Program-made: the position numbers and the translations under genes
Notes under the pieces: generated by a model
The model's database searches: none
Told to the model about the DNA's origin: nothing
What the model saw: only the letters and a program-made list of their open reading frames with translations
Virus record (IMG/VR): IMGVR_UViG_3300045950_000335
Location: 1 to 59,383 of that record
Source: a virus
Lineage: Duplodnaviria > Caudoviricetes
DNA: 59,383 nt
Direction: 5' to 3' (one strand)
Shown: piece after piece, positions 9,298-59,383 of the stretch
Numbering within the stretch: position 1 is the stretch's first letter
How the letters are laid out: each line of letters starts with the position of its first letter

Positions 9298-9306
9298 AGA
9301 TAGGCC

Positions 9307-9335: not shown

Positions 9336-9373
9336 GCGGACGTGTAACACTTTTACCAGCTTATAACACAGCT

Positions 9374-13326: not shown

Positions 13327-13330
13327 TGCC

Positions 13331-13934: not shown

Positions 13935-13959
13935 CCACGTATCACCAAAGGAGACCACT

Positions 13960-16835: not shown

Positions 16836-17047
16836 CTACCGTCTACGCAGACCTGGTGCTGGACACCGGCGAGCTGGTCCGCATCGAGTGCCCTGGGCAG
16901 TTCGAGGACGAGCTGTACGACTCGCTGAATCAGTGCATGAAGCGCAAGGACGAGTGGTCTCCGGCTCGGTTCGAGGGGTGCAACGCCGAGTTCATGGGGC
17001 ACTCGCTCAGTCGCGTGAACATGGCCAGAGTGGTGGGGATGCTATGA
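16832..17047 (+). CDS. Hypothetical protein
   Basis: RBS GGAGG; ATGA overlap. Confidence 0.55.
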   Translation: MTTVYADLVLDTGELVRIECPGQFEDELYDSLNQCMKRKDEWSPARFEGCNAEFMGHSLSRVNMARVVGML

Positions 17048-17424: not shown

Positions 17425-17591
17425 TCTGCAGGAACTGCGCAAACCCGGTTGACATGGACAAGCAAATGTCTCGGCAAGGCTACCGCTCCTGCTCGGCCGC
17501 TCGAACTCCGCTCGATCAGGCCAAGTTCTACCGTGGCGACCATAAATGCCACTGGCCGGAGCGATTCGTCCGTGCGAACCGCTCCGTTTGA
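17421..17591 (+). CDS. Small Cys-containing hypothetical protein
   Basis: MICRNC...; coupled start. Confidence 0.45.
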   Translation: MICRNCANPVDMDKQMSRQGYRSCSAARTPLDQAKFYRGDHKCHWPERFVRANRSV

Positions 17592-17685
17592 CCCATGAAG
17601 AAGTCCGAGTTTACAGTCCGCACCGTTGGAACTCCTGATGTCGAATTGGCGGCGGACCTGTTCGCCCCGTTGTTTCTGAAAATAC

Positions 17686-19396: not shown

Positions 19397-20788
19397 TTAC
19401 AGATATTTTTTCATGCGCGCCAGAACGGTCTCGCGCGGGAAAAGCGCGAGCACCGCGTCGACCGACGGCGTATGAGTCTGGCCCACCAGCATCACGCGCA
19501 ACGGCATTGCCAGCCTGGGCATCTTCAGGCCGTGCTTGGCCAGCAGTTCCTTCAGCAACGTTCCCAGCGCGGGCGCTTCCCACGCAACATCGGCGAAGCG
19601 CTCGGCGAGTTCGCGCAGTGCCGGCAGCACTTCCGGCACCAAGTGCGTGTCCAGCAATTCCTGCGCGGGATGCACGTCGATGTAGAACACTTCCGCCTCG
19701 TCCGCGAGCTCGACCAGGGTCGAGGAGCGGTCCTTGTAAAGGACGACGACGGCTTCGAGCGAGGGCGAGCCGCCTGCGCACACGCCGCGCTTCTCCAGTT
19801 GCCTCTGCACCAGGGCCGCGAGCCGCGCGTTGTCGGCCTGCTTGATGTAGTGGTTGTTCAGCCAGTTCAGCTTCTCGGTGTTGAACTGCGCCGCCGAAGG
19901 CGTGATGTGATCGAGATCGAACCACTCGCAGAACTGTTCGACCGAGAACACCTCCTCGTCGCCGTGCGACCAGCCCAGGCGCGCGAGATAGTTGATGACC
20001 GCCTCGGGCAGGTAGCCGTCCTCGTCGTACTGCATCACGCTCACCGCGCCATGGCGCTTCGACAGCTTGGTGCCGTCGTCGCCCAGGATCATCGACAGGT
20101 GCGCGTACTGCGGCACGGTCGCGCCCAGCGCCTTGAGGATGTTGATCTGGCGCGGCGTGTTGTTCACGTGGTCGTCGCCGCGGATTACGTGGGTGATGCC
20201 CATGTCCCAGTCGTCCACCACCACGCAGAAGTTGTAGGTCGGCGTGCCGTCGCCGCGCGCGATGATGAGATCATCCAGTTCGCCGTTGTCGAATTCAATT
20301 TTTCCCTTGACCAGGTCATTCCATGAAGTCACTCCGAAAGTCGGCGTCTTGAAACGCACCACCGGCTTGATGCCCTCCGGCGGCGCGGGCAGCACCTTGC
20401 CGGGTTCGGGACGCCAGCGCCCGTCGTAGCGCGGCTTCTCGCCGCGTTCGCGCTGCGCCTCGCGCAGTGCATCGAGCTCGTCGGGCGTGGTGTAGCAGTA
20501 ATAGGCATGGCCCGCATCCAGCAGTTGCTGGATGACTTCCTTGTAGCGCGGCATGCGCCGCATCTGGTAGAAGGGGCCTTCGTCGTAGTTCAGGTTGAGC
20601 CAGTCCATGCCGTCGAGGATGGCCTGCACCGCCTCCGGCGTGGAGCGCTCCACGTCGGTGTCCTCGATGCGCAGGATGAACGTGCCGCCGTGCTTGCGCG
20701 CATAGGCCCAGGAAAACAGCGCGGTGCGTGCCCCGCCGATGTGCAGGTAGCCGGTGGGACTGGGAGCGAAACGGGTGCGTACGGTCAT
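19397..20788 (-). CDS. gltX: Glutamate--tRNA ligase
   Basis: [34 protein letters not shown]. Confidence 0.97.
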
Positions 20789-20898
20789 GATGAAACGGAA
20801 CTGGCAAAAAAGAGGCGCGCATTTTACGCCAGATGCGCTGGATCGCATAAACAAATTGACCCGCCCAGGCACCTGTGATTAAATGCGCGCCCTCGATT

Positions 20899-20973
20899 GG
20901 GCGGTTAGCTCAGCGGTAGAGCACTGCCTTCACACGGCAGGGGTCACTGGTTCGAACCCAGTATCGCCCACCA
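20899..20973 (+). tRNA. tRNA-Val (CAC), probable integration site of the right prophage
   Basis: GGGCGGTTAGCTCAGCGGTAGAGCACTGCCTTCACACGGCAGGGGTCACTGGTTCGAACCCAGTATCGCCCACCA; upstream TTGACC-17-TTAAAT. Confidence 0.96.
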
Positions 20974-29000: not shown

Positions 29001-32000
29001 CTGATGCCGCCGTGTCCTACGACCTCATGGACAGCAACCCACACCGCGCGCTCCGGCGTGGCGATATTGGAGGCGATCAGGTACACGGTGTTCGTCACCG
29101 GGTCATAGACGCCCTCGGTTCCCTGGTCGATGGGCTTGAGCGCGCGCAGAGAACGCAGATACAGGTCGTTCGGCACCTGGCGCGCCGTCTCGATGATCTT
29201 GATGTCGCGGAACCCGTGCCAGCCGTTGCGCAGCCGTGCAGTGGCCTTGGTGACTGATTCGACGGTCTGACCGCCTCCTGGGTTGCCTCGGCTGAACAGC
29301 GCCGCGCCGGAGCCTTCGGTAATCTCGAACGTCCCGTCATCACGGACAATCAGCGTGCCGTCGCGCTCCCCGAACGTATTGAAAAAGCGCCCGAACTTTC
29401 CGTCTTTCCAGTCGTAAGTCCCGGCCTTTCCGCGAAGGCGCGCATTGAAAAACAACACTCCTGATTTGTATTCAAGCGCGGCTTTCAGCGGGTCTCTTTT
29501 CTTCCCGAAGTCAACCTTTTTCGCCCCCTCCGGTGCGCTCTCCAGTTCCGCCGATTCGCGCGCCGACTTCTCTGCGGCAAGGCGTGTCTTGACCTGCTCT
29601 TCCAGCGCGTCAACCTTTGCCCGTTCTGCCTCATTCTCCGGAAAGAAACCAAGCAGCGGTCGTCCGCTTGAGTGTCCCGCCATGTGGTGCCACTCCACGC
29701 CGGAACCCCATGCTTCGGAATCCGTCGCCTGCACCACCTTGTATGCGGCATCCCTGCCGCCGGAATCGTTGGCATTGCGAGAGTTCCTGCGCATCACGCT
29801 GAATGCCGGATCGGCAACAAACGATACTTCCGTCCCTTCCGGCGTCACGCCGGTTACGATGGCATCCCTGGCCTGTTTCATGAACACGGCCAAGTCAAGG
29901 TCGGTAAATCCGTCCAACTTGTCGGCCAGCCAGTTCCAGTTGTGCCGTTCCGCGAAAACCTGCAATGCCTGTTTGATCTTGCCCAGCACCCACTTGATCG
30001 CCTTCGCCGTCTCGCCCGTGGTCTGCGCGTGGGCGATCAGCTCGTTCACGATGGCCGCACGCTTCTTCGCCAGCGCGGTCTTTTCCAGCCCAATAACGGC
30101 ATCGGTAACGGCGGATATTTCCTTTTCGATCCCGTACTGGCGCGCGATCTTCAACACCCCAGCCGTGCCGCCCGCGCGCTGCCAGAATTCGTTCATCACC
30201 GGGACTGCCGCTTTACCCAGCACAGCGAATGTGCCAAGATGCCCCAATGCCTCATGCACCAGAGTTTCCTCAACCTCGGCAACCGTCCCGATATTCGGGC
30301 GCACCAGATAGGCGTTACCTTGATAGACAAAGCCCTTGATCTCGTTCGGCGGATAACCAAGCTCTTCCGCCGCCGCAAGAATGTCAGCCGGAATGTTGGC
30401 ATGATCGTCTATCGTGACGATCCGGTTGCGGCTGACCGCATCCCATCCGGCGGAAAGCCGATGGACGGCTTCATCGAAATCTTTGGCGGCAAGCGGCTCG
30501 ACGACCGGTGAGCCCGTCTGGAACATCGCCGTGTCAGTTGTCTGGGTAGTCGAACCAAGAACCTCCCGCACATCCTCCGGCGAAAGCGTGTCTGTGTTCA
30601 GCGCCTCGATGGCCTTCAGCTTCGCGGCTTTGTCCAGGTCGGATGAGATGATGGCGGCTTTGGCGGATTGCTTGCTTTGCTCGGCTGGCTGGGGTATATT
30701 GTTTCTACCGGATGGCTGAAAGACAGAAATTTCGCCCTCTGCTGGAACCTCATGGTTCACTGGATGATGGGTACGGCGGCCATCCAGCCATTCGGCACTT
30801 TTATTCCTGTACTGCTTCAATCCCCTATCGCGTGTGGTAATGATGTTCACAACATCAGTTCCGTTGCCATTCTTGGAAATCTCCAGCACGACCAGATAAT
30901 TCTTGTCTGTCTCATAGACAATGAACGCGCTATTCTCCCGAGTCGGGTTATGCAATACCTCTGCCTTACCTTCGATGATCTTCGGCAGCGAGTCGATTAC
31001 TGAATCCAGCTCAGCATGACGCTGTTCATCAGTATGTTTCAGCGACTTTCCGGATACTCGGACGAGCGCATGTTTTTCGCTGAATCCGTCGATGAATTGC
31101 GAAAGATCATCAATCGTGGATTGCGGCAATGTACCAACAGAAAATGTCGCATCAGGGACTTGCTGGCCTTTCTCCTTGCCGAACACATTGGACTCAAGGT
31201 ATCGGCGGACTTCGCTGAACGGCTTTACGTTTCCGGCCTGATTGCTTGACGTTTCGGCGGCGCTGATGCGCGCGGTTATCTTTTCAGCGTCATCCTTCGA
31301 CGTGAATATGGATACCCTCTCACCATTGTCGGCGGCTGCGGCAATCCGATGGCGACCGTCATTTACGCCGATCTTGCCTTTCGCATTGATTGCCACCTCG
31401 ATATTGCCGGTGGACTTCTTCCCGCTGCGCACGGCATCCAGCTTGTCCTGGCTCCACGCAAGCTGCTCCCCGTTGTCGCTCTCGAACGCATTACGCAAAG
31501 CACGCGCATCAACCTCGATCTTGGTGTCGTAACCTTCGCGCCCGGTATCGGTTTGCGTTGCCAGCAAATCCTGCTGCCCATGCGCAGCCCCAACGTCCGC
31601 AGCGCGGTCGCTGCCGGTCAGGGTGAATTCTTCTGGGGATGGCGCAGCTTCACGGCGGGCCCGTTCTTCCGCCGCCTGCTTGCGCTGGAGGTCTTGCGCT
31701 TTTAGCTCTGCTTCGGTTTGGCTTTGGAGCGCGAATCCTGGCGCTTCTGATGCAGCTCGTGCGCCGCTTTTAGCACCTTCTTGCGCTCGCTCTCCGGCAC
31801 TTTCAGCAGGATTTCCGCCACCTCTTTTGTCATTTTCGCCATATTGTTCTCCAAGGAATACGGCCAGCGCCGCATCATCCGTCCGCAGGTCATCGCCAAA
31901 CGGTATATCTGTTCCCTCATCGAGCAGGTCAGCGATGCCGCTTGCATAGCCTACGTGTTCATCGCTCAACGCCTCGCGCTCGGCAATCTCCGCCATGCGC

Positions 32001-34075
32001 AGGGCATCTTCGGCCAGATAGATCGCCTCGTCAAGCTGCGTTTCGGACAGATTTTTCCACTTTATCCCCAAGCTTTCGGCATGGGAAATACGGTCATTGC
32101 TGTATCTGTCCTTGGCCTGCTGTTCGGCGAATTTCTCGATGGTCGAGGCCTTGAAGTTGCGCTCTCCTCCGATATGGGCGCGGATCATGTCCTTCAGTTG
32201 CTGCACGCCGCCATCCACGGAATGCGTGTCGATGGCAAAGCCTTCATCCGCCAGCGAGGTCGCCAGGTCATCCAGCCCGCGCCCGTCGTTCTTGAAGGCA
32301 AAGCGCCAGCCGCCGAGCTGCTTGCGGTCCTTCTCTCCGGTGATGTCGAACATCGCGCCGGCATCCACGCCGCCGAGTTGCTTGATGCGCTGCAACAGGT
32401 CGGACGAGGCCCGCGGCTTGCGCGCAGCCTGAATTGAAGGTGCGCTTTCCTGAAGAGGCGTGGCCGGTGCTGTGATAGGTGCGGTCGCGGATTGTGCCGT
32501 AGGTTTTGCATCTGCCACCGGCTGTGCGCTCGCCAGATCGAATCCACCTTGCACTCTATCTGATGCAGTGCGTTGCGCGTCGGCCAGTTCCTTCGCCTTG
32601 GCAAGGGTGGCAAGCACGGCGTCGTAGTCGGTCTTGGTTTCCGGATTGGCTGGCCGTGCCATTCCAGGCGCTGCTACTGCTCCGCCCATGACAGAACCAG
32701 CCATGATGCCTTCCACCGTTGCGCGGTTGACGCCCTCCATCACCGGCTTGTCCTCGGCGATGTTCTTCAGCATCTGCTCCATCGAGGACTGCGTACCCTC
32801 TTCGATGATGCCTTCCTGCATCATCGCAGCAGGGATGCGTTTGTAGAATGGAGAAGTCACTGCCGATGTCGCCGTTCCGCCGGCGAGCATGGTATCCACA
32901 TCACGGATGCCGAACTTGCTGGCGAGCGCGCCGCTGTATTTTCCGACCGCTGCGCCCATGATGCCTGTCGCCAGACTTGCCAGCGCCGCGGTGCGTGCAT
33001 CCACCGACTTGTCGATCTCGTTCATTTGCTGGCCGGCCATGATTGCGCCTTCGCCAATAGCACCAGCCGTGGTCGCCGCCTTCTGCATCGCAGCCGGAGC
33101 CAGCCCGGCCTTGGAAAGCATAGCGACACGACCAATTGCGCCGCCTGCGGCCATGGATGGCAGCGACTGGATGATATTTCCGGCAGTCACGCCTAGATTG
33201 GCGGCATATTCCTTGGTGACATCCCACCAGTCTTTTGTTTCATCGTTCCATACGGCGGTGATGTTGTTCTGGCCTTGCTTGCGGATGTCGGAATATCCGG
33301 CCTCCAGTTCCTGAGCGTACTTGGCTGGCTGGAATCCAGTCACCCTCCCAACCTCATCGAACAGCTTATCGGCGGGCCGTTCGCCAACAACCAGCGCCGG
33401 CGCGATGTCCAGCAATCCGGTGAAAGCTCCGGGAACCTTGGCTACGCCGATACGAAAATCCGTCGCCGTGTCGGCGATGACATGGTGAGCATTGGCATAG
33501 TTGCGCTGCTCGACTCCTTGAGCATATTGAGCGCCTTGCTCTGTCAGGATACGGCGCGCATTCTCGCCTTCCGGCGTATCGCTGGCCGCCAATGTGCGCA
33601 GCGAAGCCATGCGCGCATTCTCTGCGTCGATGCGCTCTTGCTCCGCCCTCCCTGACGCCTCAACCGCATCCGCCATCACCACTTCCGGCTTGCGCGTCAC
33701 CGCCTCCTGATCCGCGATGCGCGGCGAGCCGCTTCCCTGAATGAAGCGCGATGTCTCCGCCATGGTGTCATTCTGTCCGTCTGCCTTGGGCGCAACAGCG
33801 CGCTCCGCGGCAATATCCTGCGCGCGGGTATTGACAGAAGAATAGCCGTTTTCATCGAAGCGGATGCCGGAGCGGATCGCGGCCAGCTTGCTGTTGGTCG
33901 CATCGACCGGCGCATCCATGACGGACGGACTACGGAACAGCTCATTGGCCGAACGGTACAGGCGGTCCTTCATGGGGGCGGATTGAACGGGTTCATCTTG
34001 TGGCCCTATCGGTTTCGCCGAGGAAAGATCAAACCCGCCGGATACCGGCTTGGCCGAAGCGAGGTCGAAGGTCAT
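26060..34075 (-). CDS. Giant (2671 aa) internal virion / DNA-ejection polyvalent protein
   Basis: Located between internal virion genes and tail fibre; HEALGH and HEVVGH zincin-like motifs; ParB-like NDGRHR. Confidence 0.8.
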   Translation of the reverse strand: MTFDLASAKPVSGGFDLSSAKPIGPQDEPVQSAPMKDRLYRSANELFRSPSVMDAPVDATNSKLAAIRSGIRFDENGYSSVNTRAQDIAAERAVAPKADGQNDTMAETSRFIQGSGSPRIADQEAVTRKPEVVMADAVEASGRAEQERIDAENARMASLRTLAASDTPEGENARRILTEQGAQYAQGVEQRNYANAHHVIADTATDFRIGVAKVPGAFTGLLDIAPALVVGERPADKLFDEVGRVTGFQPAKYAQELEAGYSDIRKQGQNNITAVWNDETKDWWDVTKEYAANLGVTAGNIIQSLPSMAAGGAIGRVAMLSKAGLAPAAMQKAATTAGAIGEGAIMAGQQMNEIDKSVDARTAALASLATGIMGAAVGKYSGALASKFGIRDVDTMLAGGTATSAVTSPFYKRIPAAMMQEGIIEEGTQSSMEQMLKNIAEDKPVMEGVNRATVEGIMAGSVMGGAVAAPGMARPANPETKTDYDAVLATLAKAKELADAQRTASDRVQGGFDLASAQPVADAKPTAQSATAPITAPATPLQESAPSIQAARKPRASSDLLQRIKQLGGVDAGAMFDITGEKDRKQLGGWRFAFKNDGRGLDDLATSLADEGFAIDTHSVDGGVQQLKDMIRAHIGGERNFKASTIEKFAEQQAKDRYSNDRISHAESLGIKWKNLSETQLDEAIYLAEDALRMAEIAEREALSDEHVGYASGIADLLDEGTDIPFGDDLRTDDAALAVFLGEQYGENDKRGGGNPAESAGERAQEGAKSGARAASEAPGFALQSQTEAELKAQDLQRKQAAEERARREAAPSPEEFTLTGSDRAADVGAAHGQQDLLATQTDTGREGYDTKIEVDARALRNAFESDNGEQLAWSQDKLDAVRSGKKSTGNIEVAINAKGKIGVNDGRHRIAAAADNGERVSIFTSKDDAEKITARISAAETSSNQAGNVKPFSEVRRYLESNVFGKEKGQQVPDATFSVGTLPQSTIDDLSQFIDGFSEKHALVRVSGKSLKHTDEQRHAELDSVIDSLPKIIEGKAEVLHNPTRENSAFIVYETDKNYLVVLEISKNGNGTDVVNIITTRDRGLKQYRNKSAEWLDGRRTHHPVNHEVPAEGEISVFQPSGRNNIPQPAEQSKQSAKAAIISSDLDKAAKLKAIEALNTDTLSPEDVREVLGSTTQTTDTAMFQTGSPVVEPLAAKDFDEAVHRLSAGWDAVSRNRIVTIDDHANIPADILAAAEELGYPPNEIKGFVYQGNAYLVRPNIGTVAEVEETLVHEALGHLGTFAVLGKAAVPVMNEFWQRAGGTAGVLKIARQYGIEKEISAVTDAVIGLEKTALAKKRAAIVNELIAHAQTTGETAKAIKWVLGKIKQALQVFAERHNWNWLADKLDGFTDLDLAVFMKQARDAIVTGVTPEGTEVSFVADPAFSVMRRNSRNANDSGGRDAAYKVVQATDSEAWGSGVEWHHMAGHSSGRPLLGFFPENEAERAKVDALEEQVKTRLAAEKSARESAELESAPEGAKKVDFGKKRDPLKAALEYKSGVLFFNARLRGKAGTYDWKDGKFGRFFNTFGERDGTLIVRDDGTFEITEGSGAALFSRGNPGGGQTVESVTKATARLRNGWHGFRDIKIIETARQVPNDLYLRSLRALKPIDQGTEGVYDPVTNTVYLIASNIATPERAVWVAVHEVVGHGGIRMLGRSVKDTVETAAKNSTVTRLARAIAADRKEPLNARKHVDEAIAELAAAHITGDFDALLDRYQVVVPAEMRGGLRALIQRVVDALRSFMRAALGKPGEQADEVSDAEILDLIRQMKGKVEGKAEPAVEHEDGSYAMSSRAPAPKEGPAVPRNTDIVARILPKSVPLLYSRDELGNIRSELLGTRRFKDFLHAAFFRPMGVKLGMAQATPELAKLIRRQKADLDKAMRVAGEVVNSTKGMTEEEAGLISRIVTQEMRNDDVPPEHALKIAAVVEQAMTQQGQDAVDLKMLSEDAYEKWKGRYLPRFYLRHLDPEIKSVWRRAFKSSPVDGFRSGSLKGRGKRQVVTAAELPQWEALGWKLDDKRILRSGNLELTLDGKPLPDTDTVVIWKDYTPEERRDMGEIEDFRLRFVMGYLSMQRDLSVGRLYKTIAENPEWTRRTPSDGFVYVPETEIPDTGGLKSYGMLSGMYVRKEILYHISQYEQNNNEFQKYYKAALSKWKEGKTVLNPVTHMNNFVSNLTMAHFAGVSYWDGEKYYFALRDLARGDQLVKEAEDAGLFTGDFSQEEIMKGMPPEVRNLISASSDSAARRAGRFIWKLASLGLNEKAAKAYHLGDTLFKYAIYRDARSKGMSPEDAVQYSTKYIFNYDDLPVTARVIRDYALPFFGYTYKVVPALIHTAVEYPWRFAMPATIIASINALTYASLAGDSGDDDWWLTAIASGTINALLNAYTLGLYGDGEAETAGQMLEQEERKNLPEWDKGRSALGTQKTIRLGTDEKTGMPVFMNVYRFIPGGDIQDVNNEKGGIGGIPAPLMPSNPLLGLYSGLIDNRNWDGKELFDSNDTGTDKAKKAAGFIYKQFMPAVAPMGNHYDRILNSAANYFDTTLEKASLFRDYTGTGKDGLPEQPKYAAMQTFGIKAKPIDLQRSEEIAEGMKMGVAKSVKAEIRSAARLLEKGAISQREYDRIEREGMEKIEALMQTE

Positions 34076-51048: not shown

Positions 51049-51054
51049 TCTGCG

Positions 51055-51096
51055 ATGATAGGCGCGCCTAACATCTTAGTCAATAGGCTTGCCGAA
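51055..51096 (-). promoter_or_regulatory. pR-like promoter with two CI operators
   Basis: Minus-strand TTGACT-17-TATCAT; dyads ATAGGcgcgCCTAA (51058-51071) and ATAGGcttgCCGAA (51083-51096). Confidence 0.8.
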
Positions 51097-51119
51097 TGCA
51101 CACAATGCTAATGTTAGGC

Positions 51120-51794
51120 ATGAGTTCGCTATCAGAAAGAATCAAAGAGCTTGCCGCCGACCTTCCGCGCGGGTGGCAGGCCGAGCTTGCGCGCTATTGC
51201 AAGGTAAAGCCGCCGTCGGTCGCTGGGTGGGTATCTGGTGACACAAAAACGCTTGACGGCGAGAACCTGCTGAACGTGGCAGCATTTTTCAAGGCGAACC
51301 CGAAATGGATTGCTACAGGAAAAGGTAGAAAATACCCAGATTCTTCCACCTATTCATCGGGAAGCGCCGCTCCAGAGCAAGGCAATATCTCTCCACAAAA
51401 AATAGCCATCGGAGGAAGAGTGCCTTTAATCAGCCTAGTGGCGGCTGGTACCTGGAGAGAGAGCGTGGATAACTTAGTGCCTGGAACAGCAGAAGAATGG
51501 GTAACAACAACCGTTGCCGTAAAACAACACACCTACGCCCTGCGCGTGGAAGGCGACTCGATGGAGCCGCGCTTCCCGCATGGAGCCATCCTGATCGTGG
51601 AGCCGGAGGAAGAGGCCCGCAACGGCAGCTTCGTCATCGTGCGCCAGAACGGCTCGGAGGCCACGTTCAAGCAGCTAGTATATGATGGCGGCCAAGCCTA
51701 CCTCAAGCCGCTCAACCCGCGCTACCCGATCATGCAGATGCGTCCGGACGCGGTGATCTGCGGCGTGGTCAAGCAGATGGTGATGGACGTATAA
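51120..51794 (+). CDS. CI-like repressor (HTH plus S24 peptidase)
   Basis: QAELARYCKVKPPSVAGW; VAAG cleavage site; VEGDSMEP; ATFKQL. Confidence 0.92.
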   Translation: MSSLSERIKELAADLPRGWQAELARYCKVKPPSVAGWVSGDTKTLDGENLLNVAAFFKANPKWIATGKGRKYPDSSTYSSGSAAPEQGNISPQKIAIGGRVPLISLVAAGTWRESVDNLVPGTAEEWVTTTVAVKQHTYALRVEGDSMEPRFPHGAILIVEPEEEARNGSFVIVRQNGSEATFKQLVYDGGQAYLKPLNPRYPIMQMRPDAVICGVVKQMVMDV

Positions 51795-52730: not shown

Positions 52731-52752
52731 AACCCGCCTCGGCGGGTTTTTT
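52731..52752 (+). terminator. Rho-independent terminator closing the CI/moron transcript
   Basis: AACCCGCC-TC-GGCGGGTT followed by a T run. Confidence 0.85.
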
Positions 52753-52764
52753 ATTTAACCATTA

Positions 52765-52806
52765 TTAGGTTTGCCTATTGACAGCATGATTAGGTGCGCC
52801 TATCAT
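52765..52806 (+). promoter_or_regulatory. pL-like early promoter with two CI operators
   Basis: TTGACA (52778-52783)-17-TATCAT; TTAGGtttgCCTAT and TTAGGtgcgCCTAT match the dyads at 51058 and 51083. Confidence 0.85.
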
Positions 52807-52970
52807 GCGACCACTCTCACAGAACACCGCAGCGAGTACCGGCAGGCCAGCAGCGGCACGCGAAGGATAGAGCAGTACCGGAGCGGCGTAAGTCTGAATC
52901 GCGGCCACAGTGAAGCGGAGAGACCACGGTGAGTCCGCACGGGAGCGAGCGAAGTGAAGCACAGAACAGA

Positions 52971-53046
52971 AGCGAGGTAGAGCAGTTGGCAGCTCGGGTG
53001 GCTCATAACCACCAGGTCGCCGGTTCGAGTCCGGCCCTCGCAACCA
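52971..53046 (+). tRNA. Phage tRNA-Met (CAT), initiator-like
   Basis: AGCGAGGTAGAGCAGTTGGCAGCTCGGGTGGCTCATAACCACCAGGTCGCCGGTTCGAGTCCGGCCCTCGCAACCA. Confidence 0.88.
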
Positions 53047-53371
53047 ATCCTCCCAAGGGCGCAGCCTGAGAGCGTACAGGCCGTGGGGAATGCTCAAGAT
53101 AAGTTCCACGTTAAGGCAAAGTTGAGCCGACGCAAGCAAAACGATACTTGCCGACCGTAGCCAGTGCGAAAGAAGGCTACCCCCTTGTCGGGTCAAAAGC
53201 TCCCGTCCGTGGGAATCGTAACTATCGGACTGCGTGGACTGCCGTGCAACAACGGAAGCCGTGTGAAACAGGGGCGGAATCAAACGAATTCCAATCCGGG
53301 AACGCGGGATGCGCGCTGCGGCTTTAACAGCAGCACGGTTTAACGCCAACAGAGACATGGAAGGAGAAAGC

Positions 53372-53725
53372 ATGAAACAGCCGCAATTTATCGCCGAGTC
53401 CAAGCCGATGATGGATGCAGTGGATGCCATGTTCGGCAAGCTGTTCGCGCCGGAAGAATGCCTGATCGTGACGCATGAAGGCATCGAGTGGTGCGTAACC
53501 GGACGCTACGAGCAGGAAGAAACGCCGTGCGGAATGGTGTCGTTCTACCGCATCAAATCTGTTTGGCTGGCCTGCGATCCTGAGCGCAACGACATGAAGG
53601 ACTACCTCAAGTTCATTGTGCTATCCAACCTGGCCGATCTGGCGGTTGAGAAGTACGAGGCCAAGGAAGCGATTTACCGTCGCGAGCAAGCGTTGCGCGA
53701 AGAAGCGATGGCGGAAAGGGAGTGA
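53372..53725 (+). CDS. Hypothetical early protein
   Basis: RBS AAGGAG. Confidence 0.6.
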   Translation: MKQPQFIAESKPMMDAVDAMFGKLFAPEECLIVTHEGIEWCVTGRYEQEETPCGMVSFYRIKSVWLACDPERNDMKDYLKFIVLSNLADLAVEKYEAKEAIYRREQALREEAMAERE

Positions 53726-53726
53726 C

Positions 53727-53843
53727 ATGAATACCAGAAAACTCTACCAGCTTGTGCGCGCCTACAAGGACCTGGGCCTCTCGCATGACGCAGCATTCGA
53801 GCGCGCTTTCGCAGAGTACAAGGCCATCAGGGGCGCGAAATGA
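53727..53843 (+). CDS. Hypothetical protein (38 aa)
   Basis: RBS GGGAG; coupled to next gene. Confidence 0.45.
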   Translation: MNTRKLYQLVRAYKDLGLSHDAAFERAFAEYKAIRGAK

Positions 53844-54112
53844 ACCTGCCCTATCGCAGACGCTACAACTGGAAGCTGGTCTGGCGCAGCTACCGCCACA
53901 TCTTCGCGTGGCTGACGCTGATCGCCACCCTGATCTCCCTGATTATCTCCGGCGAGCGGTACATGCTCGAACACCATGCGCGGCTGGATGCAGAGAACGA
54001 GAACGCCACCATGAAAGCCGAGGCACTGCGCCTGGCCAATGTCGGCGCACCTGGTTGGGTGCATACCGATTGGGTGGAAGGCACTGCCGATCTTGAGGTG
54101 AGGAAACCATGA
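53840..54112 (+). CDS. Single-TM hypothetical protein
   Basis: ATGA overlaps. Confidence 0.55.
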   Translation: MNLPYRRRYNWKLVWRSYRHIFAWLTLIATLISLIISGERYMLEHHARLDAENENATMKAEALRLANVGAPGWVHTDWVEGTADLEVRKP

Positions 54113-54294
54113 AGGCGCTGCACGACCGCATAGACCGCATGGCAGAGCAGGCACAGATCGAAATCATGAAGGACGGCCTGCGCGCCCGTTGCCAGCTTAA
54201 CGGACTGGTGGCGCACCACAACCGCAGCCTCGCGCAACTCAGGCGCAACCGGATGGCGGAAAGACTGGCTAAACAACAAGGAGATAAGAAATGA
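54109..54294 (+). CDS. Hypothetical protein
   Basis: ATGA overlaps. Confidence 0.5.
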   Translation: MKALHDRIDRMAEQAQIEIMKDGLRARCQLNGLVAHHNRSLAQLRRNRMAERLAKQQGDKK

Positions 54295-55223
54295 ATGCAG
54301 TCACAGAGCAAGGCAAGAACACGAACAAGGTTGCCGCATTCGCTGGGTTCATGGACAAGCTCAAGCCGCAACTGGCGAGAGCGCTGCCAACCCACATGAA
54401 CGCCGACCGCATGGCGCGCTTGGCGCTGACCGCATTCAGCACCACCCCGGCGCTGCAACAATGCGACCCGAAGAGCATTGCCGGTTCGATCATGACCGCT
54501 GCGCAGCTAGGACTTGAGCCGGGCATCAACGGACAAGGCTACCTGATTCCGTATAAGGAAACCTGCACCTTCGTTCCAGGCTGGAAGGGACTGGTCGATC
54601 TGGTGGCCCGCAGTGGCCGCGCTACCGTATGGACTGGCGCGGTGCGCGCTGGCGACGAATTCGAGTATCAGTTGGGCGATACCCCATTCTGCAAGCACAA
54701 GCCTGGCGACGAGGACGACGACGCGCCCTTTACCCACGTCTATGCCATCGGTCGCGTGCGCGATGCCGCCATGCCGGTGATCGAGGTATGGAGCCGCGCC
54801 AAGGTGCAGAAGCACCTCAAGAAGTACAACAAGGTCGGCAATCGTCACTACGCGCTGGCAGACGAGAACAACCTGGAAATGTACGCCCGCAAGTGTGCGC
54901 TGCTGCAGGTGCTGAAATACATGCCATCGAGCATCGAGCTTGCCAATGCAATCGTTGCCAGCAATGCCGCGGAAGAGGGTCACGGAGTCACCATTGAGAA
55001 CGGCATCGTGGTCGATATGGGCGGATCGGAAAGCGAGCCAGCCAAGGATCAGCGCGCCGAATGCACGCCTGAGCAATTCGCCGATCTGGCTGCAGAGTGG
55101 GAAAGCCTGGTGCGCACTGGAAAGAAGAGTGCGAAGCAGGCGCTGGCTGCGATGGCGACGATCTGTGTCCTCACCGAAGAGCAGCAGTTGCAGGTTGATG
55201 CCTGGCAGTCGGAGGGCAACTGA
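54291..55223 (+). CDS. recT: RecT family single-strand annealing recombinase
   Basis: ALPTHMNADRMAR...AAQLGLEPG..GQGYLIPY...GWKGLVDLVARSG. Confidence 0.92.
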   Translation: MNAVTEQGKNTNKVAAFAGFMDKLKPQLARALPTHMNADRMARLALTAFSTTPALQQCDPKSIAGSIMTAAQLGLEPGINGQGYLIPYKETCTFVPGWKGLVDLVARSGRATVWTGAVRAGDEFEYQLGDTPFCKHKPGDEDDDAPFTHVYAIGRVRDAAMPVIEVWSRAKVQKHLKKYNKVGNRHYALADENNLEMYARKCALLQVLKYMPSSIELANAIVASNAAEEGHGVTIENGIVVDMGGSESEPAKDQRAECTPEQFADLAAEWESLVRTGKKSAKQALAAMATICVLTEEQQLQVDAWQSEGN

Positions 55224-55225
55224 TC

Positions 55226-56827
55226 ATGGAAATCCACGACATCCAGCAAGGCACTCCCGAGTGGGACGCATTCCGCCTGACCCACTTCGGCGCCAGCGAG
55301 GCCGCGGCGATGCTTGGCCTCTCCAAGAAGGTGAAGCGCACCGAACTGCTGCGCATGAAGCACACCGGCATTGCCAAGGAGTTCAGCGATTGGGTGCAGG
55401 AGAACGTCCTTGACCACGGCCACGAAGTTGAGGCGCTTGCCCGCCCGATCATCGAGCGCATCATCGGTGCGAAGCTCTATCCGGTGGTTTGCTCCGAAGG
55501 CAAGTTGTCAGCGTCCTGCGACGGCCTGACGGCAGACGATAGAACTGCCTTCGAGCATAAGCAGTGGAACGCAGACCTTGCCGAGCTGGTGCGCAACGGC
55601 ATTGTGCCAGACGATCACATGTCGCAATGTCAGCAGATATTAATGATTACAGAGGCCGAGCGCGTCATCTTCACTGTGTCCGATGGCACCGAGGAAAAAA
55701 TGGTATACGTCGAGGTGAGGCCGGACCAAGAATGGTTCTCGCGCATCATGCACGGATGGACACAGTTCGCCATCGATCTCGAAAACTACCGACACGTTGA
55801 AATCCAAGAAAAGCCGAAGGCCGAGGCCATCATGGACCTGCCCGCGCTGTCTGTGCAGGCTTCCGGCATGGTCACGTACTCCAACCTGCCGGAATTCAAG
55901 GCGGCAGCCGAGAGCTACATCTCAGGCATCAACACCGACCTGCAGACCGACAACGACTTCGCCAACGCCGAGGCCACGGTCAAGTTCTGCAAGAAAACCG
56001 AGGAAACGCTGGACGTAACGAAAAAGGCCATCCTCGCGCAGACCGCCAGCATCGACGAAGTAATCCGGACGGTCGAGCATATCCAAGCGCAGCTTCGCGA
56101 CAAGCGCCTGCTGCTGGACAAGCTGGTGAAGACCGAGAAGGACAAGCGCAAGACGGAAATGGTGGCCGCGGCAAATGTGAAGTACGCCGAGCACGTCGCC
56201 GCACTGCAGGCCGAGATAACCGGGATCAACCTGAACCCGCTGCTCAAGACGCCGGACTTTGGCGGCGCCATTAAGGGGCTGAAGTCGCTGGCATCCATGC
56301 ACGACGCTCTGGATGCCGCGCTGGCGAACGGCAAGATCGAGGCAGACCGCATCGCCCTGGACGTGCGCGCAAAGCTGGTATGGTTCGGCAAGTACGCTGA
56401 TGACTACCGCGCGCTGTTTGCCGACATGCAGCTACTTATGGGTCTGACCGGCGATGCGTTTGAGGCAATCGTGAAGAACCGCATCGCCGAGCACAAGGCC
56501 GCCGAAGCCGCCGCGAAGCTGGCCGAGGAAGAGGCGCGCATCCGGGCGGAGGAATGGGCGAAGGCGAAGGCCGAACTGGATGCTGCGAAGAACAGCCAGG
56601 AAGGCGCTCAACTATCACCGGCAGCGCAGGAACTGTACGAAGCAGAGGGTGCGGCTCGATTCTCAGAGAAGCATCCTGCCTTGGCGTCCAAACCTGAGGC
56701 AGCGAAGGCACCGCGCCCGACGCGCATGGCGCTTATTGAATGCATTGCCAGCCACTACGGCGTCAGCATCCTGACCGCCGGCGAGTGGCTGCGCACGGTA
56801 TTCACAGATGGAATACCAACTTGCTAG
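55226..56827 (+). CDS. YqaJ/lambda-exonuclease family protein with long C-terminal coiled coil
   Basis: QGTPEW...FGASEA...GHEVE...SASCDG...FEHK. Confidence 0.9.
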   Translation: MEIHDIQQGTPEWDAFRLTHFGASEAAAMLGLSKKVKRTELLRMKHTGIAKEFSDWVQENVLDHGHEVEALARPIIERIIGAKLYPVVCSEGKLSASCDGLTADDRTAFEHKQWNADLAELVRNGIVPDDHMSQCQQILMITEAERVIFTVSDGTEEKMVYVEVRPDQEWFSRIMHGWTQFAIDLENYRHVEIQEKPKAEAIMDLPALSVQASGMVTYSNLPEFKAAAESYISGINTDLQTDNDFANAEATVKFCKKTEETLDVTKKAILAQTASIDEVIRTVEHIQAQLRDKRLLLDKLVKTEKDKRKTEMVAAANVKYAEHVAALQAEITGINLNPLLKTPDFGGAIKGLKSLASMHDALDAALANGKIEADRIALDVRAKLVWFGKYADDYRALFADMQLLMGLTGDAFEAIVKNRIAEHKAAEAAAKLAEEEARIRAEEWAKAKAELDAAKNSQEGAQLSPAAQELYEAEGAARFSEKHPALASKPEAAKAPRPTRMALIECIASHYGVSILTAGEWLRTVFTDGIPTC

Positions 56828-56843
56828 GCGATTGACTTAAGGG

Positions 56844-56864
56844 CTCTAACGCCTGAATATGAAC
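56844..56864 (-). other. Degenerate attC half-site (L'-spacer-R' only), distal array boundary
   Basis: Minus strand GTTCATAT-TCAGGC-GTTAGAG resembles a canonical attC end; no partner arm found. Confidence 0.45.
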
Positions 56865-56884
56865 TTTCGACAAGGAGAGACCAA

Positions 56885-57055
56885 GTGAAAAATGCAAAGT
56901 GGTGGCAAATACTTCTGGCCGTGCTGGGAGGGGTCGTAATCGCGCTCGGCGTGCTCGTGCTTTGGTTCGCTGCAGAGGAAAGCGGCGTAGCCAAGAACTG
57001 CTACACGGGCATTGTTGGCGGTAATGTGGCCGTTATTTGCCCGCCGAACAAATGA
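56885..57055 (+). CDS. Small single-TM protein (56 aa, MKNAKWWQILL...)
   Basis: RBS AAGGAG, GTG start, TGA overlaps next ATG; not in ORF track. Confidence 0.6.
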   Translation: MKNAKWWQILLAVLGGVVIALGVLVLWFAAEESGVAKNCYTGIVGGNVAVICPPNK

Positions 57056-57525
57056 CGACGCCTATTGCGCAGGCCGGCACAGAGAGTGGTTTTGATGCTT
57101 TAGAAGAGGCGGTCGGCGCATATTGGGATTGCGCGTACCAGGAGGGACATCTGGGCCGCCAGGACGGCGACAAGGCCAATGCAATACTGCATGAGATTCG
57201 ACGCGCTGCGACAGCGCTTGTTGCGGAAGAACGCGCCCGATGGGAGCCGGCGGCCGAGAAAGCATACAAGGCACTTTGCGAAGAGTCGGCTGCATACGAT
57301 GAACCGCTGTCGCATGCTCCAGGCCACGCGCACGCCGTACCTGGCGTGTGGGACGACGACAACGGCGAACTGGCCGGCAAGCGTTGCGCATGGTGCGCGA
57401 CGTGGGCGAAGGCGAAGGCGATGGGACTCACGACGCCCAACGCCAGAGTTGACCGGCCTGACGCGGCTTTATGCGGCAGGTCCGGTCGGACGACGGGTTG
57501 TGCGGCTGGTGGAGAAGACCGATGA
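57052..57525 (+). CDS. Hypothetical protein reading through attC3
   Basis: C-terminal PNARVDRPDAALCGRSGRTTG is the translated attC. Confidence 0.6.
   Translation: MTTPIAQAGTESGFDALEEAVGAYWDCAYQEGHLGRQDGDKANAILHEIRRAATALVAEERARWEPAAEKAYKALCEESAAYDEPLSHAPGHAHAVPGVWDDDNGELAGKRCAWCATWAKAKAMGLTTPNARVDRPDAALCGRSGRTTGCAAGGEDR
57435..57503 (-). other. attC site 3 (69 bp)
   Basis: Minus: GCACAAC-CCGTC-GTCCGACC-GGAC...CCGGTCAAC-TCTGGC-GTTGGGC; folds into a hairpin with extrahelical bases. Confidence 0.82.
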
Positions 57526-58103
57526 CGGTGGCCGTGCTCTTCGCTCGCGCGGACAGCAACTACAAGGCTCTGCCTAACGTTGAGGTATTCGACGCCGAGC
57601 GAGACGCTCGCACCTACGACGGGCCGTGGCCGGTTGTGGCGCACCCGCCCTGCCGTGCCTGGGGAATGTTACGCAAGCTCGCCAGCCCGCGACCAGACGA
57701 GCGCAACCTGGCGCGGCTTGCCGTGGCTTTGGTGCGGGAGTTTGGTGGCGTGTTGGAGCACCCAGCCGGCTCGACGCTCTGGGCGGCGCAGAAGCTGCCG
57801 AAGCCCGGAGAGCGCGACGCCTTCGGCGGCTGGACGCTCGAAATTGACCAATGGCGATTCGGGCACCGCGCCATGAAGATGACGCGACTGTACGTGGTCG
57901 GAGCGGAGCCCGAGGAGGCCCCACGACTGCCGCCGGCGAAAACAGGGGAACCGACGCATGTGATAACACAAGGCCGGCGTGCGAAGAAAGGCGAACCGGG
58001 CTTTCGCAGCAGGGTGACAGACGCGGAACGCGAGCATACGCCGCCGGCGCTCGCGCAATGGCTCGTAGAACTGGCGGCGAAGTGCAAGACGCACAACGTT
58101 TGA
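57522..58103 (+). CDS. Cassette ORF: compact DNA cytosine methyltransferase-like protein
   Basis: VAVLF (degenerate motif I), VAHPPC (IV), VLEHP (VI), GHRAMKMTRLY (VIII-like), REHTPPALAQWL. Confidence 0.65.
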   Translation: MTVAVLFARADSNYKALPNVEVFDAERDARTYDGPWPVVAHPPCRAWGMLRKLASPRPDERNLARLAVALVREFGGVLEHPAGSTLWAAQKLPKPGERDAFGGWTLEIDQWRFGHRAMKMTRLYVVGAEPEEAPRLPPAKTGEPTHVITQGRRAKKGEPGFRSRVTDAEREHTPPALAQWLVELAAKCKTHNV

Positions 58104-58159
58104 GGTAACCGGCCTCGCGCGCTTTTTGCGCGAGGTCCGTGTTGACCGAGAGGTTATGC
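58091..58159 (-). other. attC site 2 (69 bp)
   Basis: Minus: GCATAAC-CTCTC-GGTCAACA-CGGAC-CTCGCGCaaaaagcGCGCGAG-GCCGGTTACC-TCAAAC-GTTGTGC. Confidence 0.88.
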
Positions 58160-58189
58160 CTCTCGCAACTACGAAGAAAGGAAAGAACC

Positions 58190-58483
58190 GTGAGCAACAA
58201 ACTGAAACTGACCAAGATCGAACTGACCACGAAAGACGGCAAGAAGGTTGAGTTGTCGTTGGATGAGGCGAAAGACCTGCACGACCAACTGCATGAATTG
58301 TTCGGCCAGAAAACCGTCTTTGTGCCTGGGGCGCCGGTAATCATTGAGCGTGACCGTTACTGGCGGCCGTACCAGCCGTATTGGGGCGGCGGCGGCGGGG
58401 GCGGGAGTGACCAGCGAACCTGGGAAGTGCTTTGCAAGAGCAGCAGCGGCCTTGCGGTGACGTATGGCGGACAAGAGGCATAA
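58190..58483 (+). CDS. Cassette ORF: hypothetical protein (97 aa)
   Basis: RBS AAGGA, GTG start; TAA lies within GCATAAC. Confidence 0.65.
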   Translation: MSNKLKLTKIELTTKDGKKVELSLDEAKDLHDQLHELFGQKTVFVPGAPVIIERDRYWRPYQPYWGGGGGGGSDQRTWEVLCKSSSGLAVTYGGQEA

Positions 58484-58569
58484 CGTCGAAGGTCAGGGGC
58501 CGGCGCCCACTGACCGTTGAACAACCTGCAAAACGCTTGCCGCCGGTCCCCTGCACCGTAGGGTTAGCC
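58478..58569 (-). other. attC site 1 (92 bp)
   Basis: Minus: GGCTAAC-CCTAC-GGTGCAGG-GGAC-CGGCG...CGCCGG-CCCCTGACC-TTCGAC-GTTATGC. Confidence 0.85.
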
Positions 58570-58593
58570 GGCACCACCGGAAAGGGTGCACGC

Positions 58594-58839
58594 ATGAATC
58601 TCTACCACTTTTGCGCGATGAGACAAGGCGAAAGCGCTGGTGTTTTGTCATACGCCGATGGAACAGTTTCGTCGTCAGGCAATTTTGCTGATGCTGAAGA
58701 ATACGTGAAGTTGAAGAGGGCGATAGTCAAATACATCAACGCCAACGGCGGACACGCCACGGAGGTTGTTCTGCTGTCGCTGACGCTCATTGGGGAAGTG
58801 CCGGCTAACTTGAATTCAACGACACCACCTGTCGCGTGA
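58594..58839 (+). CDS. Cassette ORF: hypothetical protein (81 aa), reads through the candidate attI
   Basis: ATG after AAGGG; lower GC than flanks. Confidence 0.6.
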   Translation: MNLYHFCAMRQGESAGVLSYADGTVSSSGNFADAEEYVKLKRAIVKYINANGGHATEVVLLSLTLIGEVPANLNSTTPPVA

Positions 58840-58853
58840 ACAGGGGTCGCGTG
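58803..58853 (-). other. Candidate attI site
   Basis: Minus strand GTTGAATTCAA-GTTAGCC core with no attC hairpin partner; direct repeats GTCGCGTG at 58831 and 58846; adjacent and divergent to the IntI-type gene. Confidence 0.6.
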
Positions 58854-58891
58854 CCGTATAACTCGATCACGCACAACTGGAGGGCCGCATC

Positions 58892-59383
58892 ATGACTGAT
58901 CTCTTGGAATTGAACGCGACAGCGCAAACCGTTCAACGCGACACGCCTGCCGTGCCGCACGAACCGCCGCGCCCGGTGAAGCTGCTCGACCAGGTGCGCG
59001 AGCGCATCCGCACGCTGCACTACAGCCGAGCCACCGAGAAAACCTACCTCTACTGGATCAAGTTCTTCATCCTCCAGCAAGGCAAGCGCCACCCGCGCGA
59101 CATGGGCGCCGCCGAGGTCGAAGCCTTCCTCTCGCACCTCGCCACCGCTCGCGAAGTCTCCGCCGGCACGCAGAACCAGGCCATGCACGCCATCCTGTTC
59201 CTCTACAAGCAAGTCCTCGGCATCGACCTGCCCTGGCTCGAAGTCGTCCGCGACGTCCTCGGCCATACCAGCGTGCGCACCACCGAGCGCTACGCCCACC
59301 TAGCCGTAGATCGGCAGCGCGAAGCCCTGCAGGCGCTTTCACGCGCCGTCAAAAAGTCCAGGGGTGTAGCAAATCCGGTGTAA
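58892..59383 (+). CDS. Chimeric/truncated tyrosine recombinase: IntI-type N-terminal domain fused to LGH..TT..YAH tail; probably catalytically incomplete
   Basis: LLDQVRERIRTLHYS..TEKTY..WIK.FI...KRHPRDMG..EVEAFLSHLA....VS..TQNQA..A.LFLYKQVL..DLPWL, then directly EVVRDVLGHTSVRTTERYAHL. Confidence 0.8.
   Translation: MTDLLELNATAQTVQRDTPAVPHEPPRPVKLLDQVRERIRTLHYSRATEKTYLYWIKFFILQQGKRHPRDMGAAEVEAFLSHLATAREVSAGTQNQAMHAILFLYKQVLGIDLPWLEVVRDVLGHTSVRTTERYAHLAVDRQREALQALSRAVKKSRGVANPV

Follow-up and report, generated by a model that had tools for sequence, protein, structure and literature searches.

Integrons are chiefly known as bacterial gene-capture devices, above all for resistance genes; can a temperate phage carry one of its own? 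The question is raised by one end of a viral record (hereafter the window, that is, the whole 59,383-nt stretch of DNA analyzed). Cassettes separated by attC sites, an attI and an IntI-type gene had been predicted there from sequence alone, on a temperate phage and at the point where its early operon ends. This main claim is supported, and all refutation tests that were run came out in its favor. All the elements described exist, with some coordinates off by one base, whereas two accompanying claims, on the integrase gene and on the canonical layout, hold only in part, as described below. The features are listed in Table 1.

Table 1. Features of the window, in order of position.
Feature	Position	Strand	Evidence or remark
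tRNA-Val(cac)	20899–20973	+	adjoins gltX (19397–20872, minus) and lysis end of prophage
Promoter-like site (TTGACA, 17 nt, TATCAT)	52778–52806	+	11/12 consensus matches
recT	54291–55223	+	PF03837, 1.1e-33
yqaJ-like exonuclease gene	55226–56827	+	PF09588, 1.2e-09
Two ORFs of unknown function (56 aa, 157 aa), yqaJ to last attC	56885–57525	+	no family match
attC site 3, furthest from attI	57435–57503	minus (top strand)	R2 71.5 bits, E 1.2e-16
Cassette 3, 656 bp	57441–58096	minus	gene 57522–58103 (+), phrog_12600 member (3.5e-70)
attC site 2	58091–58159	minus	R2 60.9 bits; DNA fold z-score –5.35
Cassette 2, 387 bp	58097–58483	minus	gene 58190–58483 (+), 97 aa, no family match
attC site 1, long variable loop	58478–58569	minus	R2 52.0 bits
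Cassette 1, 325 bp, adjoins attI	58484–58808	minus	gene 58594–58839 (+)
attI	58809–58850	minus	conserved in 7 loci
5' third of intI, codons 1–117	58892–59243	+	TIGR02249 positions 1–87, 1.1e-33
3' end of phage-type tyrosine integrase gene, fused in frame to intI	59256–59383	+	nucleotide and peptide comparison

attC sites, cassettes and attI

Three imperfect hairpins alternate with single plus-strand ORFs. On the minus strand, the order in each is AAC and a 5-nt spacer, then an L'' arm bearing extra bases (pattern xxT[C]AAx[N]xGG[A]CC), the loop and L', and after these a 6-nt spacer and GTT. The R''/R' boxes (..AAC / GTT..), the L''/L' pairing and the unpaired 5–6 nt spacers are all present in the model alignments of the window sites. 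On the bottom strand of attC, the L'' arm has two or three extrahelical bases including a conserved T, with usually a G six pairs from it (Nivina et al., 2016). The window sites agree with this description: on the plus strand, which is their bottom strand, T is found in all three, and the second extrahelical base, six pairs away, is G in two sites and C in the third. Their lengths of 69, 69, and 92 nt are inside the 57–141 range quoted in the same paper.

A search with attC covariance models, suggested together with the original prediction, matches all three sites. Model R1 scores 62–70 bits on the minus strand of the sites vs. about 5 bits on the plus strand; it is not independent of them, as three of its ten training rows are the window sites. 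With R1 at E <= 0.01, no matches are seen in 1,097,034 bases of 80 phage loci that have a yqaJ-like gene and no intI. Model R2 is based on 103 sites from 27 other loci, with no window rows, and in a scan of all 59,383 bases on both strands (E <= 1) it identifies the three window sites only. Covariation is observed in all 11 L-helix pairs over 103 attC sites. In free folding, two of the three window sites are no better than shuffles on either strand (z –0.9 to –2.2), and in an Rfam scan, which found only four tRNAs, the array has no match. The three hairpins are genuine integron attC sites, as had been claimed from their grammar and as both models confirm; their recombination itself is inferred.

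The ends of neighboring sites are complementary to each other, the right end of site 3 to the left end of site 2 over 8 bp and the right end of site 2 to the left end of site 1 over 11 bp, both perfectly, and 58563–58574 is the reverse complement of 58798–58809 (12 bp). The two ends of one and the same hairpin are complementary over just 3–4 bp. The predicted pairing of cassette ends over 8, 11, and 12 bp thus held. So did the predicted GTTAGCC core of attI, which is the reverse complement of 58803–58809: the crossover separates position 58808 from 58809 (A|C in the plus-strand AAC), and the conservation of attI in the seven loci ends exactly at this AAC, with divergent sequences beyond. As expected of an integron, attI adjoins intI at its 5' end, and the crossover is at G|TT.

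The cassette 3 gene has its final seven bases inside the adjoining attC; a homologue with 70% identity lies in the third cassette of locus L005, and others are found in loci L007 and L029. The cassette 2 gene has a third-position GC of 0.71. The cassette 1 gene ends in codons encoded by attI, and the same tail is present on the first-cassette ORFs of L005 and L009. Of the two ORFs that follow yqaJ, the second extends through the last attC; no relative of either was found among 100 loci, and they are either backbone genes or a decayed cassette.

A fourth cassette left of 57435 was ruled out, as neither an attC (with filters off) nor a nearby GTTGGGC partner was found. A LexA-box reading of attI was dropped as well: LexA boxes have a spacing one base longer than that in CTG-N9-CAG of attI. 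One of the window attC sites is overlapped by a weak terminator-like call.

The chimeric integrase gene and the prophage context

The ORF at 58892–59383 is IntI-like solely in its first 117 residues. The match covers residues 18–117, that is, positions 1–87 out of 315 in TIGR02249, and scores 116.9 bits vs. the cut-off of 265; the ORF does not encode an IntI of full length, complete with catalytic residues and the IntI-specific extra domain. The fragment is 74% identical to IntI of G007, a phage genome with terminal repeats. The 3' part of the ORF has 77–79% nucleotide identity to the int genes adjoining tRNA-Val in L004 and L005. Both protein and nucleotide comparisons show that the ORF is a dead chimera of intI and phage int, the last 45 or so codons coming from a phage-type integrase. 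Hence, the IntI-type gene predicted to complete the layout is such in codons 1–117 only, and the window copy, carrying a phage integrase 3' end, is unable to function unaided. A truncation common to L005, L007, and L009 was rejected, their intI genes being full length or cut by the contig end.

IntegronFinder defines a CALIN as at least two attC sites without an integron integrase in the vicinity, and it would probably assign the window array to this class, since the intI remnant is under the curated IntI cut-off. Like a CALIN, the array has no working integrase and depends on IntI supplied in trans; unlike a CALIN, it keeps attI and a recognizable intI remnant, and because these are still attached, it is a decayed complete integron and not an orphan array.

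To the left, the array is flanked by phage early genes, and to the right, only by the 128-nt remnant of phage int, the right att being beyond the window. The remaining prophage genes encode replication, terminase, portal, head, and tail-spike proteins and a repressor. The tRNA-Val(cac) gene is likely to be the left attachment site, the same gltX/tRNA-Val locus being occupied by the intI-bearing prophages of L004 and L005. Compared to these two, the window prophage is reversed relative to gltX/tRNA-Val, for which we have no explanation. A prophage att left of 56844 would have made the array chromosomal; no partial tRNA-Val copy that could be a candidate att exists elsewhere in the window, hence none left of 56844, and the claim survives. 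A direct-repeat search of the whole window yielded no att-like repeat pair. The integron is thus likely to be inside the prophage, between the recT/yqaJ early operon and the phage int remnant, with the caveat that the right-hand att has not been seen.

The promoter-like site is preceded by a terminator (52731–52748), and no strong plus-strand terminator is called from 52806 to 59383. From these consensus scans only, we infer that the site may be the start of an early operon running into the cassettes.

A search for the window terminase in the four genomes holding L004, L005, L007, and L009 was negative, and the last 40 bases of the window had no exact match among the metagenome contigs scanned. 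One DNA sequencing run contains the window stretch, with a Logan contig extending 111 nt past the window end, but this run may be the source of the stretch and therefore provides no independent support. No RNA sequencing runs are listed as containing it.

Relatives in phages and the direction of cassette genes

The integron of L005 is located inside a 37.6-kb Thiobacillus prophage, at whose boundaries a 47-nt repeat corresponds to half of tRNA-Val. The gene order there is lysis, tail, portal, terminase, primase, repressor, and early genes, followed by three cassettes, attI, intI, xis, int, and tRNA-Val. Relatives of the L005 IntI are encoded on 74 IMG/VR contigs, which are software predictions. 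All ten tested contigs pass the curated integron-integrase cut-off, the IntI of the relatives being full length, and three of the ten have direct terminal repeats; in two of these three terminal-repeat genomes (L166 and L177) the attC model finds no match. In G007 the terminal repeat is 127 nt long and structural genes are present, and both in G007 and in L005 the integron has phage genes on both sides.

In the viral loci, 139 out of 147 attC matches are upstream of intI and on the opposite strand, and a second tyrosine recombinase is encoded within 3.5 kb downstream of intI in 26 of the 59 loci with enough downstream DNA. In the IntI tree (FastTree; the window row fills 28% of the columns), the window fragment falls into a supported set of ten rows, nine of which, G007 included, are viral contigs or prophage-like. 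A larger group of 46 rows (local support 92, not starred) contains all but one of the 27 rows classed as inverted and leaves out the classical chromosomal IntIs L013, L008, and L019. Except for IntI, the window phage has almost nothing in common with other IntI-bearing viral contigs. Moreover, neither intI nor attC is present in any of the 80 phages that have a related yqaJ gene, so the integron module moves between backbones.

The canonical layout that had been predicted held only partly. The window attC sites themselves have canonical polarity relative to intI, but all three cassette genes are inverted relative to the attC polarity and none is canonical; hence, the classical arrangement, with genes co-oriented with the attC top strand and a promoter beside attI, is not observed. 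The genes run with the phage early operon and intI, opposite to the classical direction. By the same rule, intervals in viral arrays are 67 inverted, 11 canonical, and 51 ambiguous, vs. 1, 16, and 2, respectively, in the classical control array L013; the rule is crude, with 51 of 129 viral intervals left ambiguous. Seven out of ten sampled plus-strand cassette ORFs match phage protein families. Many cassettes in the relatives are DNA-modification genes, from which a role in the evasion of host defense may be inferred; methyltransferase genes and a Mom-like gene are among the cassette genes sampled.

Invariant gene order in relatives would have refuted the original prediction; on the contrary, phages with the same kind of IntI differ in cassette content. 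The flanks of two loci, L135 and L136, show 99.98% identity over 8571 nt, yet the loci differ by one 336-nt cassette, which in L136 sits exactly at A|C of attI. This difference and the complementarity of cassette ends are indirect signs of IntI-dependent cassette exchange, the activity itself being inferred.

Origin of the array

The array is likely a decayed member of an integron lineage living in temperate phages. In intact relatives, a repressor-controlled early promoter is followed by the early (recombination) genes; the cassette array, attI and intI come next, and then (xis), phage int, and attP. IntI would cut the folded bottom strand of attC at A|C of AAC and join it to attI, which is established for integrons and not shown here; by such cutting and joining, single-gene cassettes would be inserted beside attI or excised. 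Located on the bottom strand of attC, the cassette genes are directed towards attI and intI, and we infer that they would be expressed by read-through from the phage early promoter, not from a promoter beside attI. The cargo consists of small phage accessory genes. In the window, a deletion, of roughly 2 kb judging by the layout of L005, has fused intI at about codon 117 to the terminal 45 or so int codons, leaving neither recombinase able to work; the three cassettes are frozen, and the prophage is probably unable to excise without help.

Could the hairpins be ordinary intergenic repeats or terminators resembling attC by chance? Two of them do fold like shuffles (z –0.9 to –2.2) and one overlaps the weak terminator-like call, but the independent model R2 finds just these three sites in 59 kb, there are no matches in the 1.1-Mb control set, all 11 L-helix pairs covary over 103 sites, the cassette ends are complementary, and the conserved attI stops at the crossover; this explanation is all but excluded. 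Only slightly more room is left for a chromosomal integron merely lying beside a prophage, with the boundary set by software at an integrase-like gene. The window is indeed a software-delimited IMG/VR provirus whose end coincides exactly with the stop codon of the integrase-like ORF, nothing is seen of the DNA beyond 59383, and the ORFs at 56885–57525 have no phage relatives. Against it, the 3' end of the ORF belongs to a phage int of the family adjoining tRNA-Val in L004 and L005, and thus the array has phage early genes on one side and phage int on the other; no tRNA-Val fragment is found elsewhere in the window; the IntI fragment clusters with viral-contig IntIs, one of them from a terminal-repeat genome; the cassette genes share the direction of the phage operon, and one belongs to a phage family; and the L005 integron is inside repeat-bounded prophage DNA. 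We consider this explanation very unlikely.

The array could also result from a one-off capture of a piece of a host chromosomal integron by imprecise excision, with no phage-adapted lineage involved. Such captures have been described (Qi et al., 2023; PMC9892861) and proposed for Vibrio anguillarum phages, and the integron module is found on unrelated phage backbones. This seems unlikely, given the 46-row tree group with 26 of 27 inverted rows and without the chromosomal L013, L008, and L019, the recurring position beside int (26 of 59 loci), the gene direction opposite to that in chromosomal arrays, the phage-type cargo, and the cassette turnover between near-identical phages.

The preferred reading, a decayed member of a phage-resident lineage, may be extended as follows. 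Temperate phages of Betaproteobacteria (and neighbors) would keep their own integron lineage beside the phage integrase; its reversed cassettes would be read with the early operon and loaded with DNA-modification and accessory genes; and it would be active enough for near-identical phages to differ by single cassettes. Taking the three parts jointly, we incline towards this reading by a small margin.

With classical integrons, both class 1 mobile and sedentary chromosomal, the phage arrays share the position of attI at the 5' end of an IntI-type gene, the attC features (R and L boxes, a variable loop and extrahelical bases), the G|TT crossover, single-gene cassettes with complementary ends, and the addition of new cassettes at attI (L136 vs. 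L135). Unlike in classical integrons, the window cassette genes are on the attC bottom strand and point to intI, the platform is in a phage early operon beside the phage's own int, and the window intI is truncated and fused to int. The original prediction stated that integrons are usually discussed on chromosomes, plasmids and transposons; this is out of date, as phage integrons have been published. A survey of 10,705 phage genomes (Qi et al., 2023; PMC9892861) reported three complete integrons and one cassette-less integrase, attributing them to the capture of host integron pieces or to class 1 integrons carried by P1. As in our case, integron parts were found on temperate phages, with DNA methyltransferase genes among the cassettes, whereas the sections consulted of that paper contain no phage-resident IntI clade, int-adjacent position or systematic gene reversal. 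Phage integrons as such are therefore known; in the literature searched, no description was found of an IntI clade that resides in phages and has reversed cassettes.

If this reading is true, phages swap early accessory genes, probably for counter-defense, site-specifically and one by one; cassettes could pass between phage and chromosomal arrays, forming a shared cassette market; the origin of “wrong-way” cassette genes receives a selective explanation; and integrons are a regular tool of phage genome evolution. Phage integrons also provide a natural test of attC strand choice vs. the direction of transcription. As the window copy is broken, its value is that of a pointer to intact relatives.

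PDB sequence searches with two proteins of the cassette region gave nothing better than E >= 0.06. The 193-aa protein of this region is placed by the protein atlas in mostly viral, unnamed clusters; on 17% of one distant atlas cluster a DNA-methylase family is found, which is a lead only.

attC sites and cassette junctions

The single plus-strand ORFs of the array are separated by three imperfect hairpins. On the minus strand, each runs from AAC through a 5-nt spacer, an arm carrying two or three extra bases, the loop, the complementary arm and a 6-nt spacer to GTT. The extra bases on the plus strand are T and, six pairs away, G (C in the third site), and this pattern of T and G agrees with how the bottom strand of attC has been described (Nivina et al., 2016). 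When this grammar was written as a regular expression, it also located sites that lie upstream of the genes for integron integrases in five betaproteobacterial loci, which had been retrieved using the integrase fragment of the window.

The first covariance model, based on 10 sites, three of them from the window, was run on the window and 20 genome loci. Its 67 matches at E ≤ 1 are without exception on the other strand from the integron integrase gene (intI), and in the window only the three array sites match. In 74 viral loci, 139 of its 147 matches at E ≤ 0.01 are located upstream of intI and on the other strand, and no matches were observed in 80 phage loci that lack intI (together 1.10 Mb). 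The second model, for which 103 sites from 27 other loci were used, recovers the three array sites and no others across all 59 kb of the window. Each of the 11 inner-helix pairs shows compensatory changes, and the fraction of pairing cells across the 103 sites is 88.4%, compared to 71.1% in shuffles and 25–52% with the partners slid; the alignment was fitted to the model, hence a bias favouring the structure. The original prediction of three attC-type hairpins thus held, both by the grammar and by the independent model.

Also confirmed, by comparison of the ends, was the predicted complementarity of cassette ends: it is perfect over 8, 11 and 12 bp (the 12-bp pair was read directly from the sequence), compared with only 3–4 bp between the opposite ends of a single hairpin. 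Such ends mark units that were once circular and were opened at the conserved triplet. The sequence to the right of the junction at attI is retained in seven loci, with conservation ending exactly at AAC; this is the pattern predicted for an attI that is followed by a variable first cassette.

Features of the window (positions in nt, junctions on the plus strand)
Feature	Position	Strand	Content or basis
Left element	1–19197		tape-measure protein, GpD-like baseplate hub, Toprim primase, C5 cytosine methylase, serine recombinase
Host island	after left element		tRNA-Glu, tRNA-Ala, gltX, tRNA-Val(cac) at 20899–20973
Lambdoid prophage, start	about 20974		right of tRNA-Val(cac)
Prophage genes		minus	lysis, tail spike, 2671-aa virion protein, major head protein, portal, large terminase, NinB, primosomal protein
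Repressor, LexA/CI type	51096–51794	plus	read from sequence
Terminator and near-consensus promoter	52778–52806 (promoter-like site)		consensus scan
tRNA-Met(cat)	52971–53046		within prophage
attC sites	57435–57503, 58091–58159, 58478–58569	minus	
Cassette junctions	57440/57441, 58096/58097, 58483/58484, 58808/58809	plus	
attI	58809		
intI remnant	from 58892		

Prophage context and the integrase gene

The window is one IMG/VR record of the provirus class, whose right end, 59383, was set by software where the last gene has its stop codon and is not a natural terminus. A second phage-like element lies to the left of the host tRNA/gltX island, its 503-aa serine recombinase gene terminating at tRNA-Glu, and therefore the record merges two elements. 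In the lambdoid prophage, the promoter-like site is followed by tRNA-Met (ahead of the first early ORF), small ORFs, recT, a yqaJ-like exonuclease gene and then the integron array, which occupies the position where a lambdoid phage carries the excisionase gene xis and its own tyrosine integrase gene int. No relatives were found for the two ORFs between the yqaJ-like gene and the last attC. Read-through expression of the cassettes from the early promoter is inferred from consensus scans alone. Similar short motifs (ATTAGGT..GCCTAT and its inverse) at 51050–51090 and 52763–52810 flank both promoter-like regions beside the repressor and, being read by eye only, might be operator sites. The 8-kb ORF at 26060–34075, encoding the 2671-aa protein, weakly resembles families of virion RNA polymerase-like and giant virion proteins.

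The IntI-type gene of the original prediction was confirmed only in part. This 163-aa ORF matches integron integrase models only across model positions 1–87; over 119 residues, it shares 74% identity with the full-length IntI of G007, a phage genome with terminal repeats, and nucleotides 59200–59243 match many intI genes. Nucleotides 59256–59341 show 77–79% nucleotide identity to the 3' end of the phage integrase gene adjoining tRNA-Val in two relatives (L004 and the Thiobacillus prophage locus L005), and the peptide tail agrees with this origin. Hence, the gene is a fusion left by a deletion, which took most of intI, everything between, and most of int. Judging by this structure, neither integrase of the window can be active.

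In L005 (Thiobacillus sp.), the repressor and the phage early genes precede the three cassettes; attI and a full-length intI come next, and then a phage ORF, an excisionase-like gene, int, tRNA-Val and gltX. As a 47-nt copy of the tRNA-Val 3' half is located 37.6 kb upstream, and the DNA between the repeats carries lysis, tail, portal, terminase and primase genes, this integron lies within a prophage. The Thiobacillus prophage has its own complete tRNA-Val beside int (L005, 12547–12722; L110, 1257–1303), and the host copy of tRNA-Val is divided at its anticodon loop, with the 5' half at the right junction and the 3' half at the left one. The order intI, int, tRNA is also seen in L003 and L004, and an excisionase-like gene follows intI in L002 and L007.

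Scanning of IMG/VR with the L005 IntI yielded 74 loci; all ten tested relatives pass the curated integron-integrase cut-off, and three of the ten have direct terminal repeats, which mark complete, unintegrated genomes. One of them, G007, carries structural genes and a 127-nt repeat; behind its intI come int and then the lysis genes, and the window prophage has the same circular gene order. A short viral contig (L180, 1162–5026) repeats the order of the window: recT, a yqaJ-like gene, one attC and a shortened intI match.

No second piece of tRNA-Val is present in the window, and so there is no marker of a prophage end to the left of the array. The window integron is likely to reside within the prophage, with the DNA to the right of 59383 unseen. 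Compared to L004 and L005, where int adjoins the tRNA, the window prophage is reversed relative to gltX/tRNA-Val; one may speculate about a different attP arrangement, or a deletion reaching into the neighbouring element. In the FastTree tree, the window IntI fragment belongs to a supported ten-row set including G007. Of the 27 arrays classed as inverted, 26 are in a wider 46-row group, from which the classical chromosomal arrays are absent.

Integrons and attC clusters in phages have already been reported (Qi et al., 2023, PMC9892861), and hence the category of phage integrons exists in print; the initial remark that integrons are usually discussed on chromosomes, plasmids and transposons is out of date. 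In the literature searched, including parts of that paper, we found neither a phage-resident IntI clade placed beside int, nor systematically reversed cassettes in phages, nor cassette turnover between near-identical phage genomes.

Cassette orientation and turnover

Orientation was assigned throughout by the longest ORF and third-position GC, with intervals shorter than 120 nt or longer than 1600 nt and exact duplicates removed prior to counting. All three intervals are inverted and none canonical both in the window and in L005, and among 129 distinct intervals of viral arrays, 67 are inverted, 11 canonical and 51 ambiguous. Of the classical chromosomal arrays, L013 has 16 canonical intervals, one inverted and two ambiguous, and L008 has three canonical, none inverted and three ambiguous.

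The plus-strand ORFs are real genes, as follows from protein family matches. The 193-aa cassette protein of the window matches phrog_12600 (3.5e-70) and shares 70% identity with the third-cassette gene product of L005. Phage family matches were observed for seven of ten cassette ORFs sampled from four arrays (picked among the larger of 32), and the families include DNA methyltransferase, Mom-like modification protein, PAPS reductase, exonuclease and DHH phosphoesterase. A homologue 62% identical to the 193-aa cassette gene is present in a yqaJ-bearing provirus without an attC match (L029, 3434–3976), so this family is found in cassettes and also among ordinary phage genes. Since cassette genes face attI, their stop codons are often located within the neighbouring site: the 193-aa gene terminates 7 bases inside the next attC, and in the window, L005 and L009 alike, the first-cassette gene ends with the same attI-encoded tail.

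Two pairs of relatives differ in cassette content. Between L135 (G007) and L136, intI and int do not differ and the flanks are 99.98% identical over 8571 nt, but L136 carries an extra 336-nt cassette with 10-bp complementary ends exactly at A/C of attI, as well as another unit, of 540 nt, at the distal end of the array. In L147 and L148 (flanks at least 99% identical), whole blocks between attC sites differ. These sequence comparisons probably reflect integron activity in the lineage. The distal unit of L136 (8571–9114) has 14-bp complementary ends with just 6 nt between the AAC and GTT boxes; lacking a hairpin, it could be an unusually minimal site.
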